Below are positions 12,446 through 27,123 of a stretch of DNA of 64,000 nt, piece after piece. Source of the stretch: Bacteroidia bacterium (GTDB lineage: Bacteria; Bacteroidota; Bacteroidia; NS11-12g; UBA9320). The stretch lies in the NCBI GenBank assembly GCA_965216465.1, contig CBDCFW010000006.1, forward strand, positions 352,001-416,000, written 5' to 3'. Under the pieces are notes generated by a model that worked only from the letters and a program-made list of their open reading frames with translations, was not told the origin of the DNA and searched no databases. Position numbers and translations under genes: made by a program. Numbering within the stretch: position 1 is the first letter of the stretch; each line of letters opens with the position of its first letter.

Positions 12446-13927
12446 CTATTTGATGTTCACCACATCAACAAAGTACATGTCAACCTCTCCTTTTCCTTTT
12501 GCCTGTATCTTGCCGCGATGCTCAAATTTCAAGTCTTCATCATCTTTTAATAATTCATAGGTGTAGTGAGAAATATTAATCCTTCCAACTTCTCCATGGG
12601 ACTCCATTCTTGAAGCCGTGTTTACAGCATCTCCCCATATGTCGTACTGAAATTTCTTAACCCCAACAATTCCAGCAACAACTGGACCCGTATTAATGCC
12701 AATTCTCATCTGAAATGGAGTTTTGCCTAGCCTTTTTCGTTTATCATGATCGTTCATTATAAACTGCTTCATTTCAAAGGCCGCAAGTATGGTATTTTTC
12801 ACAGAATTGGCATCCGGAACAGGAATTCCCCCAGCAGCCATATAAGAATCTCCTATGGTCTTAATTTTCTCAATATTGTATTTGTCACAAATAGCATCAA
12901 ATGCCTTGAAGCAATAATTAATATCAGCTACCAATTCTTCTGGACTTAGCTCCTGAGACATCCGTGTAAATTCCTTAAAATCAGTAAACAAAATTGATAC
13001 AGAGTCAAATTTTCTTGCGACTGCCTCCCCATTTTCCTTTAACTCATCTGCAATTTCTGAAGGCAAAATATTAAGCAACAACTTGTCCGATTTGTGCTTC
13101 TCTTGCTCGAGTGTTGATTTACTCTCATCCAAAAGTTCATAGATTTTTACATTGTCTAAAGCAACGGCCAAATACGAAACCAAGGTTCTTAGAAAGTCTA
13201 AATGATAACTGTTATAAACTTCTGCAATCTTACTTTCAACAGAAAGAGCACCCAATTTACTATCGTGAAGTGAAAAAGGGATACACATGATTGCTGCAGG
13301 ATTGTAGGACCCGTCTAAGGAAGCAATGGGGTCAAATACATATTGACTGTAGTCCTCAACTGCGTTGTTTAAAAAAGCTTCTTTTCCGTTATCAAGACAC
13401 CATTCTAGAATAGAGCTATTCTCTTTAGAATGAGGAGGTCTATCAAGCTTTCCGTCTTTATTGACCCTTATGGTATGTGCAGTAGAATCGGTATAATACA
13501 GCAAGTTAAGATTCTCAACTTCCATACTTGAAGAAACATACGTAAAGAGGATTTGAAGGATGTGCTCTACATCTAAACTTCCCGTAATCTCTTTACCTAT
13601 TTCGGTAAGCAAGGTAATTTGTGAAAGTGAACTTTCAACGCCTTTAAGTTTCTGATCTAAATTTTTCTTCTCTTTTGTTTCAGAATGTAAACTTAGATTA
13701 TCCTTCTTGGTTTTAGTATACCGACTTGCTAGCTTATTAAAATCAGAGGCTATTTGACCCAATTCACCGTTACTTTCAAACGTCACTTTTACAAGTTCCT
13801 CTTCTTTCACCGCAAAACTAGTTTTGCTGTTAAGCTCCTTGATTTTTCGTCTGAGCATCAAGTATCTACTAGTTATAATAACAGCAAACAACAACGCAAC
13901 TGAAGCAACGATTAGGGGTAAACTCAT
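12446..13927 (-). CDS. membrane-anchored class III adenylate cyclase (TM, HAMP-like helix, GAF, cyclase)
   Basis: ILFTDFKEFT, EKIKTIGDSYM, YDIWGDAVNTASRMES (K/D adenine-specifying residues); GAF IMCIPF...LGALSVES; GELGQIASDFNKL; N-terminal TM. Confidence 0.93.
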   Translation of the reverse strand: MSLPLIVASVALLFAVIITSRYLMLRRKIKELNSKTSFAVKEEELVKVTFESNGELGQIASDFNKLASRYTKTKKDNLSLHSETKEKKNLDQKLKGVESSLSQITLLTEIGKEITGSLDVEHILQILFTYVSSSMEVENLNLLYYTDSTAHTIRVNKDGKLDRPPHSKENSSILEWCLDNGKEAFLNNAVEDYSQYVFDPIASLDGSYNPAAIMCIPFSLHDSKLGALSVESKIAEVYNSYHLDFLRTLVSYLAVALDNVKIYELLDESKSTLEQEKHKSDKLLLNILPSEIADELKENGEAVARKFDSVSILFTDFKEFTRMSQELSPEELVADINYCFKAFDAICDKYNIEKIKTIGDSYMAAGGIPVPDANSVKNTILAAFEMKQFIMNDHDKRKRLGKTPFQMRIGINTGPVVAGIVGVKKFQYDIWGDAVNTASRMESHGEVGRINISHYTYELLKDDEDLKFEHRGKIQAKGKGEVDMYFVDVVNIK

Positions 13928-13990
13928 TCGTTAGTATTTCTAATAAAAACACTAAATTAGCAAAATCTAACCAACTAATGTGAAGTCAAT

Positions 13991-25832: not shown

Positions 25833-25836
25833 AATC

Positions 25837-27123
25837 ATGAAATACGTCTCTTTTAAAATATTCACTTTAATCCTATTAACCGTTGCAGCAAGTTCATGCA
25901 AGAAAGATGACGTAGCGGATCGAAGCAGTGGTCTGTTTGCCGGAATTTACGAGCACAATGGAAGCAATGCAACTAACGAATTAATTCCGTTTAATTTGAG
26001 TTGCGCAATTGAAAGCAGTACAGGGCACCTGTATACCACATCAACAGAAAATATCTCCCCAGATATATTCTTAGTCGTTATGAAAACAGATGCCGAAGGC
26101 AACAAAGAATGGATTAAAAGCTATCCTGTGCTTAGACGATTGGATACCAATATTTGGAACATCATAGAGTTGGAAGATGGTACACTTTTTATAAACTCAA
26201 GAAGAACAGATGAAATTTTGAGAATTAATTCAGAAGGAGACATCATCTATCATAAAACGTTTATCGATGATTGGGATAACGAACTGCAAACCGAAGCCAT
26301 CTCAGAACCATTGGTTCAGGAAGACGGCACGCTGTATCTTTCTGCACGTTATAGTGGATCCAGATTCAACCCTCCCACTAAAGTAAAAACGGTTTCAATA
26401 GACGAAAATGGTGATGCAATTGTCCTTCAGCAGTGGACTGATGAGAATTTTGCGACTATACTATATCACAATGTGGTATATGTTGATGTTGCCAACGATT
26501 CTGTATGGTATATCAGTAGTGCACCGGTTAAACAAGGTATAAATTCAACAGTACTGTTAAATTTTCATCAACAAAATCTTGGAGAAATTCCGACGGGTTG
26601 GTCTGATATGCTTTCGCCTCCAGAAGATACCGCAAACAATTTGGGAATTGTGCCCAATCATAGTTTAAGCGGTCCGCAACGCCACGGAACGGAGTTGCTT
26701 GTGTTATCTTCTCCTGATTTAGCTTTTGGAGTACCAATTCCAAATGGAAATCCAATTCGGTTTTGCAGATCTACAATTGATTGGGCAGCTGATGTTTATA
26801 AGGAGCGGAAATTAATTCATCATCCCACTTATTCTTATAGTGCTCGTTCGTTTACACGGACCGAAGAAGGCGAGTATTATATCTGTGGTGTAGTTGATCA
26901 AGGACTTCCTTCAGAAAAAGCATTTTTGGTAAAGCTGAATAACGATTTAGAAGTAGTTTTAGAAAAATACGACTATGATGAAACATATCGGTTTAACCAT
27001 ATCAGCATGTGTGAAGATGGTAACTTACTAATTTGTGGCTACACCATTGGTTCGGGGCAAGGAAATGACACCAAAACTAAATGGAACTTACTTTGTCGTT
27101 TGGATGCTGATGGGTCATTATAG
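25837..27123 (+). CDS. beta-propeller lipoprotein, paralogue B3
   Basis: Lipobox ASSC followed by KKDD; KTDAEGNKEW, DGNLLICG. Confidence 0.75.
   Translation: MKYVSFKIFTLILLTVAASSCKKDDVADRSSGLFAGIYEHNGSNATNELIPFNLSCAIESSTGHLYTTSTENISPDIFLVVMKTDAEGNKEWIKSYPVLRRLDTNIWNIIELEDGTLFINSRRTDEILRINSEGDIIYHKTFIDDWDNELQTEAISEPLVQEDGTLYLSARYSGSRFNPPTKVKTVSIDENGDAIVLQQWTDENFATILYHNVVYVDVANDSVWYISSAPVKQGINSTVLLNFHQQNLGEIPTGWSDMLSPPEDTANNLGIVPNHSLSGPQRHGTELLVLSSPDLAFGVPIPNGNPIRFCRSTIDWAADVYKERKLIHHPTYSYSARSFTRTEEGEYYICGVVDQGLPSEKAFLVKLNNDLEVVLEKYDYDETYRFNHISMCEDGNLLICGYTIGSGQGNDTKTKWNLLCRLDADGSL

Follow-up and report, generated by a model that had tools for sequence, protein, structure and literature searches.

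A widespread STAND gene set that probably encodes a trans-envelope, NLR-like system, and a rare variant of it that carries an adenylate cyclase

Bacterial STAND, or NLR-like, proteins are described in the available text of published accounts as cytoplasmic sensors. The locus examined here raises the question of whether such a protein can be turned towards the cell surface, and of which neighbouring genes would then serve as its input and output. The window (the whole 64,000-nucleotide stretch of a Bacteroidia contig that was analysed) holds, at 12446–27123, a STAND NTPase gene among genes for lipoproteins, outer-membrane barrels and a nucleotide cyclase. All 11 open reading frames (ORFs) of the original prediction were present at their coordinates, with intergenic gaps of −4 to 96 nt within strand blocks, and its description of them as tightly packed was borne out. 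The system it encodes is real and conserved and, as judged from sequence, probably trans-envelope and NLR-like; it is an uncommon form of a gene set that is otherwise widespread.

The STAND gene lies at 13991..16945 on the plus strand. Pfam searches of its product gave 304.4 bits for nSTAND1 (PF20703; cut-off 27.1) over residues 6–406 and 70.9 bits for WD40 (cut-off 27), and the order of parts could be readily followed along the chain: the NTPase at 6–406, a helical region, a transmembrane (TM) helix at 470–487, a coiled coil at about 488–615, a helical linker and the WD40 repeats at about 690–984. The Walker A (residue 45) and Walker B (residue 127) motifs both fall in columns that are invariant or nearly invariant across 35 homologues. 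The TM helix is single and is preceded by KQRKRKIR; neither a further hydrophobic segment (the next-best scored 1.38 against 2.25) nor a signal peptide was found in the protein. In the approximately 130 residues that follow the TM helix, Ala occupies one heptad register at 14 of 24 positions. The nSTAND-TM-coil-WD40 architecture originally proposed was thus confirmed, and the topology that follows from these sequence features is predicted to be N-in, C-out, with a cytoplasmic NTPase, one TM helix and a periplasmic coil and WD40 domain. One TM helix was likewise found in 79 of 82 homologues, which come from the best 80 of at least 585 matches. No N-terminal effector domain could be detected on the STAND by Pfam, nSTAND1 beginning at residue 6, and PADLOC models matched it at the P-loop level only (mad3, E 3.3e-4, 25 residues). 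No other gene in the source genome exceeded the nSTAND1 cut-off.

The STAND family was found in at least 585 species-level genomes; within one Bacteroidota order, 59 of the 151 genomes sampled carry homologues, mostly in single copy, and the family also extends to Acidobacteriota, Planctomycetota and others. Related loci, 82 in number, were compared using our own simple ORF caller, with BLAST clusters as gene families; because these loci are mutually related and were taken as the best 80 of at least 585 matches, the counts overstate independent support. Within this set (best 80 of at least 585 matches), 74 loci have room for a downstream gene, and in 53 of these the STAND is directly followed, in the same orientation, by a gene for an outer-membrane barrel: 36 have a short T gene, 12 a T N-domain fused to a TonB-dependent receptor and 5 a member of another barrel family. 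A short T gene is followed by an A-family lipoprotein in 29 of 32 loci, and the A lipoprotein by a protein of at least 1400 aa in 9 of 13 canonical loci (again among the best 80 of at least 585 matches); the sole large protein tested, that of L065, contains PKD and a T9SS sorting domain. Conversely, 12 of 14 full-length T-family genes, from 5 genomes, are found within nSTAND1 loci. The conserved linkage on which the original prediction stood or fell was upheld by these counts. The grouping of the genes is not chance, as the same partners recur beside STAND homologues, and a functional STAND-T-A module is very probable. Across the components, sequence identity drops from the inside outwards, mean pairwise values being 55% for the NTPase, 37% for the T N-domain, 29% for WD40, 23% for the T barrel and 19% for the A lipoprotein.

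Upstream of the STAND the picture is more varied. The first gene on this side, examined in 73 loci (best 80 of at least 585 matches), encodes a TIR/DUF4062 protein (c2) in 45, a c3 protein in 13, a HAMP-PP2C protein in 5 and a cyclase in 1. DUF4062 was detected in 32 of 42 c2 proteins and TIR_2 in 26 of 42; c3 combines HEAT and cNMP-binding parts and is transporter-like, and the PP2C companion is SiaA-like.

The window holds the cyclase. Its gene (12446..13927, minus strand) is predicted to encode a membrane-anchored class III adenylate cyclase, with Pfam scores of 197.3 bits for Guanylate_cyc (PF00211; cut-off 21.9) and 35.3 bits for GAF_2 (cut-off 28.6). A TM segment (residues 1–25) is followed by a weak HAMP-like linker, a GAF domain (118–258), a signalling helix and the cyclase domain (304–487); residues 5–75 are weakly similar to the TM2-HAMP part of BaeS (E 2.8e-4). 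Residues D316, D360, K356, D429, N436 and R440 aligned with catalytic positions of mammalian AC8 and AC5, all six expected catalytic residues being retained. We take these to be the two metal-binding Asp, the substrate-defining Lys and Asp, and the transition-state Asn and Arg, the Lys/Asp pair presumably being of the adenylate type. In the NTPase tree the window, L035 and L127 form one clade, each member carrying a divergently transcribed TM-GAF cyclase together with T2 and T1, and in this clade the cyclase takes the place of the upstream TIR/DUF4062 gene. L035 (49% identity) and L127 (54%) alone yielded full-length orthologues, in both cases divergent from a STAND gene; none was detected in 40 relatives searched, and of 80 loci kept from a metagenome scan the 1 with a full-length cyclase has it adjoining the STAND. 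The L035 cyclase gene points the same way as a neighbouring A-B pair, and the barrel and lipoprotein cassettes are multiplied there, as in the window. The linkage of cyclase to STAND in the original prediction thus held in all three members of a single clade and proved narrower than that of barrels and lipoproteins, as other clades carry other upstream genes. Its role as the output is plausible on the evidence of three loci, and could equally go either way.

With no sensor domain outside the membrane, the cyclase would need a partner for its input. On the output side, the window contains no cNMP-binding gene; of the 9 found genome-wide, the closest lies approximately 27 kb past the window end, and c3 was not recovered from the source genome by a single L047 query (nor was canonical c2); a receiver for cAMP would thus be missing. 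It is unlikely, but deserves serious consideration, that the trans-envelope sensor is the same and the cyclase an independent neighbour, the clade having lost TIR/DUF4062 and its output possibly being provided by the STAND itself. In favour of this reading, the cyclase lies on the opposite strand, has a GAF input domain of its own and no nearby cNMP receiver, and is paired with the STAND in 3 loci only; moreover, the genome contains two further cyclase-domain genes, one of which, elsewhere, adjoins a cNMP-binding gene. The divergent transcription, the GAF sensor and the reliance on three related loci likewise count against our main explanation. Nevertheless, the pairing outlasted 44–54% sequence divergence and gene rearrangement in all three clade members, and the full-length form occurs nowhere else in the relatives and metagenome loci above. 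The gene also occupies the side held in other clades by TIR/DUF4062, c3 or PP2C, and its product has a TM anchor and no external sensor.

The barrels T1 (19507..20520) and T2 (20517..21593) are both encoded on the minus strand. T2 scored 31.7 bits for OMP_b-brl_2 (PF13568; cut-off 27), its true start probably being Met17 or Met19 of the ORF, and its Atlas neighbours are Bacteroidota OMP_b-brl_2 clusters at 0.98; T1 scored 20.3 bits, below the same cut-off, and is homologous to T2 (BLAST E 4e-17). T2 is the paralogue nearest to the single barrel of canonical loci, with BLAST values down to E 2e-73 against barrels encoded next to STAND homologues on the downstream side, and a T2-like gene followed by a T1-like gene is also seen in L035 and L127. 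Both had been predicted to be TPR-barrels. The barrels stood; for TPR, the best match in T1 (TPR_19, 21.5 bits) was below its cut-off of 25 and T2 gave none, while a T-family profile searched against PDB sequences returned one weak barrel match (E 0.019) and no TPR structure. The N-domain of T1 is best described as helical and TPR-like, and that of T2 as conserved. No Plug domain was found in T1 or T2 by Pfam. In the long T forms of related loci the shared N-domain precedes a Plug (143–250), TonB-receptor models starting from about residue 137. FecA-type transducers carry a signalling domain ahead of the plug.

Six lipoproteins, none with any Pfam family match, fall into two groups at 19–29% identity: A1 (17027..18244, plus), A2 (22767..23987, minus) and A3 (24612..25832, plus), and B1 (18241..19506, plus), B2 (21550..22770, minus) and B3 (25837..27123, plus). 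The start of B1 overlaps the end of A1 by 4 nt, and A2 is the first gene of a minus-strand block, A2-B2-T2-T1. An hhalign comparison of A with B (probability 99.7, E 9e-26) showed them to be homologous, the B family being a diverged paralogue of A. By BLAST, A2 matched A1 at E 2e-25 and A3 at E 8e-17, and B2 matched B1 at E 3e-11 and B3 at E 6e-9; A3 likewise matched A1, and B3 matched B1. A3 was also recovered by an A2 profile search of its own genome (E 2.4e-76). In that genome, full-length A-profile matches, and three more inside B ORFs, are all at the locus, the rest being partial stretches in larger ORFs. Structure models were all-beta for A1 (pLDDT 78, pTM 0.80, 29 strands) and for B1 (pLDDT 74.7, pTM 0.76), the latter built from 5 sequences, as a B-family search at E <= 0.001 gave 6 proteins, two of them from the window. 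For both, the best Foldseek match was the CylK propeller domain (TMq 0.69 for A1, 0.63 for B1), followed by BamB. The original claim of six propeller lipoproteins is thus good for homology among all six, with the propeller itself modelled in A1 and B1. A lipobox pattern is present in 33 of 36 A-family members, among them A1 and A2, and in 4 of 5 members of the B alignment; B3 has a lipobox followed by KKDD. In 30 of the 33 A proteins acidic residues follow the lipobox Cys, which we take to be a surface export motif, and this hints that A proteins may be surface-exported. For the lipoproteins of the G037 locus a relationship to the A family was undetectable (hhalign probability 0.3).

Our preferred explanation, to which as a whole we give a little less than an even chance, is an envelope-spanning NLR-like sensor with a relay from the cell surface to the cytoplasm. 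The A and B lipoproteins, joined in canonical loci by the large secreted protein of at least 1400 aa, would form a variable outer layer in contact with the cue. Binding or disturbance at the surface would be passed by T to the WD40 domain, the T N-domain docking on the periplasmic WD40 or coil; this contact would relieve autoinhibition, whereupon the cytoplasmic NTPase would oligomerise and the oligomer would activate an output based on nucleotides. For most relatives the proposed output is the TIR plus DUF4062 (NADase-type) protein, and for the window clade the divergently encoded, membrane-anchored TM-(HAMP-like)-GAF adenylate cyclase. Physical coupling across the envelope is, by itself, rather likely, and the case for an outside-in direction of signal is evenly balanced. 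A complex prediction of STAND 590–984 with T2 47–358 (35-row alignments each) gave a score of 0.01, informative neither way.

It is quite unlikely that the machine runs the other way, with the STAND sensing the cytoplasm or inner membrane and acting through coil and WD40 on the outer-membrane barrels and lipoproteins, much as TonB and TolA work on partners in the outer membrane. It might, for example, open a pore and so serve as a death effector, or help to assemble or anchor proteins at the surface. The long helical segment that is anchored in the inner membrane and spans the periplasm, with an outer-membrane barrel as partner, would suit such action, as would the TonB-dependent receptor-like nature of some partners and the large secreted proteins encoded beside the A gene, one of which, when tested, had a T9SS sorting domain. 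Known STANDs, however, use C-terminal repeats as input and the NTPase as switch, according to the accessible part of one account (PMC7159879). The upstream genes encode cytoplasmic enzymes separate from the STAND (TIR/DUF4062, PP2C, cyclase), which is what outputs would look like, and the outermost parts vary most, as expected of sensors.

If the outside-in sensor is real, it would be the first NLR-like STAND receptor to read the outside of a diderm cell. A periplasmic sensor with outer-membrane partners of its own would bring NLR-type sensing to the cell envelope and offer a testable route from surface events to cytoplasmic NADase or cyclase outputs; in the window clade, where an adenylate cyclase would hold the effector slot and the outer modules are multiplied, it would amount to a natural experiment on the exchange of inputs and outputs. 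A literature search, with supplements and subscription journals outside its scope, found no description of a TM-nSTAND1 protein with outer-membrane partners, in agreement with the earlier statement that no functional description of the assembly was known.

Among known systems, the nSTAND1 conflict systems (Kaur, Iyer, Burroughs, Aravind, eLife 2021, PMC8195603) share with the locus the NTPase family PF20703. In the accessible part of that account they also resemble it in TIR and nucleotide-signalling effectors and in C-terminal repeats as the presumed sensor, but are soluble multidomain proteins with effector-associated adaptor domains; a TM helix, periplasmic WD40, outer-membrane barrels and lipoproteins go unmentioned there, and the supplementary neighbourhood tables might list such loci. 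Avs, bNACHT and the Apaf-1/NWD1/TEP1-type DUF4062-NACHT-WD40 proteins, as presented in the available text of their descriptions, are built on the same plan, with repeats as the sensor, a STAND as the switch and an effector. The locus and the antiviral and DUF4062-NACHT-WD40 STANDs alike have WD40 sensors, and canonical relatives of the locus use a DUF4062/TIR NADase-type effector as the latter do. These are cytoplasmic single polypeptides that sense intracellular proteins, in the same available text, whereas the locus would have its sensor beyond a TM helix, its effector in a separate gene and conserved outer-membrane partners, with no family-level PADLOC match to the STAND and no N-terminal effector fusion.

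FecA-FecR-FecI exemplifies cell-surface signalling by TonB-dependent transducers. It is paralleled here by a barrel with a periplasmic N-extension before the plug, in 12 of 74 related loci (best 80 of at least 585 matches), and by a single-pass inner-membrane partner with a periplasmic C-terminal domain. It differs in that this partner is a STAND ATPase rather than part of a sigma/anti-sigma pair, families of which there were none among the window genes scanned; furthermore, the window barrels are small and plugless, and the proposed output is nucleotide-based. Pycsar and CBASS-like systems are approached through the class III cyclase domain (PycC models in PADLOC, E 1.6e-13), and Pycsar effectors through the cNMP-binding end of canonical c3 (E 9e-6). 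Unlike Pycsar, the locus has no adjacent cNMP-binding effector (0 of 9 genome cNMP_binding matches are in the window), and its cyclase carries an adenylate-type Lys/Asp along with TM and GAF modules. The modelled A1 and B1 resemble the propeller lipoprotein BamB at fold level, and BamB and the TPR lipoprotein BamD are, like the locus proteins, envelope proteins that work with a barrel; yet there is no sequence relationship to BamB (no Pfam match), the CylK propeller ranks above BamB as a structural match, and nothing ties the locus to barrel assembly.

As for function, the likeliest role is in conflict or defence, by watching the cell surface for attack or contact, a tentative proposal that is some way short of even. 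DUF4062 is reported as an anti-phage NADase in the accessible portions of 2026 preprints. The SiaA-like PP2C and the T9SS surface proteins among the companions are as compatible with signalling in behaviour or adhesion as with defence. The more specific idea that a hypervariable outer layer detects phage adsorption, predator contact or other surface insult before entry, with a coil relay leading mostly to NAD+ cleavage and here to cAMP, is rather doubtful.

The locus lies in a variable region of at least 31 kb, as compared with five same-genus genomes, bounded on its right edge by a tRNA-Asp (31088..31162, minus strand; ARAGORN). DNA matches to 5 of 5 of these genomes begin at window position ~31085; positions 1–12445 had no DNA match in the five, in which no left edge of the region was found, and 12446–27123 was compared by protein only, neither the STAND nor the full-length cyclase being found. 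No phage, integrase or known defence genes were seen in the flanks. That unrelated envelope genes merely came together here is highly improbable: the region is specific to the source genome among those compared, holds other unrelated genes and includes a small lipocalin-like gene without counterpart in related loci, but the same families recur beside STAND homologues in several phyla, the T and A families are nearly confined to STAND loci, and the neighbourhood counts contradict such a reading.

That small gene (24066..24515, plus strand), a putative member of the system, encodes a lipoprotein that had been called a lipocalin. The name did not hold up, Lipocalin_4 (PF13648) giving 19.4 bits against a cut-off of 22.4, although the product is possibly lipocalin-like, with Atlas leads at 0.92–0.93; no homologue was found in the 82 related loci (best 80 of at least 585 matches). 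Convergent with B3 is the gene for an 831-aa surface protein (27269..29764, minus strand), T9SS-sorted by its matches to Por_Secre_tail (41.1 bits) and TIGR04183 (52.3 bits). Compared with the large proteins of canonical loci, it has the sorting domain alone in common, with one of them, and is possibly a peripheral member of the system at most.

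ORFs were called with a simple ORF caller, which returned 11 in window 12446–27123, separated by intergenic gaps of −4 to 96 nt, in keeping with the tight 11-gene cluster of the original prediction. The cyclase and STAND/WD40 identities proposed there agreed with Pfam. The cyclase (12446–13927, minus strand) is of class III (Guanylate_cyc 197.3 bits, GAF_2 35.3 bits), with one N-terminal TM helix, a weak HAMP-like stretch, six of six catalytic residues and the Lys/Asp pair of adenylate cyclases. Divergent from it, the STAND gene (13991–16945, plus strand) encodes an nSTAND1 NTPase at residues 6–406 (304.4 bits) and C-terminal WD40 repeats (70.9 bits). 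The six lipoproteins, for which no Pfam family was matched, split into groups A1–A3 and B1–B3 (identity 19–29%), and A and B are themselves homologous to one another (hhalign probability 99.7, E 9e-26). They had been described as propellers; the predicted models of A1 (pTM 0.80) and B1 (pTM 0.76) are all-beta and propeller-like, the best structural match of both being the CylK propeller, followed by BamB. For the two presumed TPR-barrels, T1 and T2, the barrel part held (T2 lies above the OMP_b-brl_2 cut-off and T1 is its paralogue); TPR matches in the N-terminal domains stayed sub-threshold. The small lipoprotein gave no better than a sub-threshold lipocalin match. In the alignment of the T family, the signal-peptide cleavage site is followed within a few residues by an almost invariant Cys, and the consensus has another conserved Cys; a disulfide in this place would fit a periplasmic domain.

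A single TM helix was located in the STAND protein at residues 470–487, preceded by KQRKRKIR and followed by an A-, E-, and Q-rich stretch of approximately 130 residues, where one heptad register is common to 14 of 24 alanines. The coil and WD40 repeats are predicted to be periplasmic, since the protein has no signal peptide and its ATPase must lie in the cytoplasm. A single TM near residue 500 was present in 79 of 82 STAND proteins, comprising the best 80 of at least 585 relatives and two from further loci.

These relatives came from scanning 185,579 species genomes, and linkage was counted in the 80 loci kept plus two from a separate search, with gene families defined by BLAST clusters and profiles built from those clusters. 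Among culturable bacteria, Sediminibacterium goheungense, Mucilaginibacter hurinus, and M. galii have related loci. Conserved linkage of the STAND gene with its partners, which the original prediction had named as a check, was found: among these mutually related loci, selected by similarity, the next same-strand gene encodes an outer-membrane barrel in 53 of the 74 with room. Of these, 36 are short T barrels, 12 join the T N-domain to a plug-and-barrel TonB-type receptor, and 5 belong to another barrel family, seen in Acidobacteriota. Next after the short T comes an A-family lipoprotein in 29 of 32 loci, and then a protein of at least 1400 aa in 9 of 13 loci of canonical type; the one such protein tested carries PKD and a T9SS sorting domain.

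Within five genomes, nSTAND1 loci account for 12 of the 14 full-length T genes. The remaining two form part of an orphan cassette in genome G042 (T-T-A-like-A/B-like; contig C5 of that genome, locus L207, 15094–19594), far from its single nSTAND1 gene, an indication that outer modules can be supplied in trans. In genome G041, a barrel-only T relative lacking the N-domain adjoins an A-like lipoprotein gene (C1:2907041–2908954), apart from both STAND copies. The window's own genome has one nSTAND1 gene, and its full-length A-profile matches, together with further ones inside the three B ORFs, all fall in this locus. Repeats matching the A profile were also seen in a 1015-aa ORF at window 38384–41431 (plus strand; E 8e-15, contig C6:391329–392219) and in a 963-aa ORF outside the window (C6:551171–552301).

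Upstream of STAND, a DUF4062/TIR_2 family protein was found in 45 of 73 loci (DUF4062 in 32 and TIR_2 in 26 of 42 family members), a family of roughly 12-TM proteins in 13 (HEAT in 32 and cNMP-binding in 15 of 34 members), and a HAMP-PP2C phosphatase in 5. Such alternative enzymes in one slot (TIR/DUF4062, PP2C, or cyclase) suggest that outputs may be exchangeable. The canonical order in Bacteroidota (L047, L065, L039, and about 30 more) runs from the ~12-TM HEAT/cNMP-binding protein through TIR+DUF4062, TM-nSTAND1-WD40, T, and A to a protein of roughly 1850–2600 aa, that of L065 being the one tested. In 9 of 82 loci, a SiaA-resembling HAMP-PP2C phosphatase joins the TIR gene or takes its place. 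In the Acidobacteriota loci L090, L091, and L104, where the downstream barrel is Phenol_MetA_deg-like, the TIR/DUF4062-STAND pair has as its neighbour a protein combining RyR, TPR-S, and a cyclase domain; this adds a further cyclase association, from a distant clade.

The NTPase tree places the window together with L035 and L127, whose STAND proteins are 43–44% identical to its own. A full-length TM-GAF cyclase (identity 49–54%) is divergent from STAND in all three clade loci, and each also has a T2-like/T1-like pair. L035 carries A and B genes as two pairs, of which one runs in the same direction as the cyclase, and no A or B gene was found within 10 kb in L127. The 40 relatives searched gave no full-length orthologue of the cyclase, and just one of the 80 loci retained from the metagenome scan has it at full length; the putative cyclase–STAND link rests on three loci. 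With single queries, neither the canonical TIR/DUF4062 gene nor the canonical cNMP-binding gene was found, and the window has no cNMP-binding gene of any other kind. Elsewhere in the same genome (C5:66263–67346), a second cyclase-domain gene (664-aa ORF) directly adjoins one for a cNMP-binding protein, and together they are predicted to be a separate cyclase–receiver pair.

Mean pairwise identity declines outward, from the NTPase (55%) through the T N-domain (37%), WD40 (29%), and the barrel (23%) to A (19%). Gene order, topology, and this outward drop fit a trans-envelope sensor, in which a conserved cytoplasmic switch, the NTPase, would be fed by variable outer parts; its component contacts, signalling direction, trigger, and cAMP receiver are as we infer them. 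In long T forms, the shared N-domain occupies exactly the position of the signalling domain in FecA-type transducers, a placement that supports outside-in signalling to a putative single-pass inner-membrane partner. DUF4062 has been reported as an anti-phage NADase in 2026 preprints, which tilts the canonical system toward a conflict role. Homologues that are mostly single-copy, T9SS surface proteins, and a PP2C resembling SiaA, however, also fit a role in adhesion or behaviour signalling.

The sensor-type working logic resembles that of NLR/Avs proteins, and its place at the envelope that of FecA-FecR signalling. Unlike Avs, the STAND protein has no fused effector and its sensor is predicted not to be cytoplasmic; unlike Pycsar, the locus has no adjacent effector; and in contrast to TonB-dependent transducer systems, the window's barrels lack a plug and there is no sigma pair. 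The nSTAND1 family, to which the NTPase belongs, was named in PMC8195603, and one preprint predicts that certain other STAND proteins have sensor domains in the periplasm. In the literature consulted, no description was found of a TM-nSTAND1 protein with outer-membrane partners, and supplementary neighbourhood tables from the Aravind group may list such loci.

Of 24 same-genus genomes, 0 yielded a full-length STAND homologue, as did 2 of 16 from a sister family. In one Bacteroidota order, 59 of 151 sampled genomes have a homologue, mostly in single copy. Flanks were compared as DNA with five same-genus genomes, and window 12446–27123 via its STAND and full-length cyclase proteins, neither of which was found there by protein search. 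Window 1–12445 has no DNA match in these five, and right-hand matches start only at ~31085, conserved synteny resuming at tRNA-Asp (31088–31162). The left flank showed no integrase; it encodes at 7113–12394 a NUDIX-NrtR-type regulator, an SPFH/Band 7 protein, an FMN-binding protein, a SUFU-domain protein, and a 192-aa lipoprotein. The variable region that contains the locus (window 1 to ~31085) also encodes two T9SS-sorted surface proteins (1684–2847 and 27269–29764, both minus strand).
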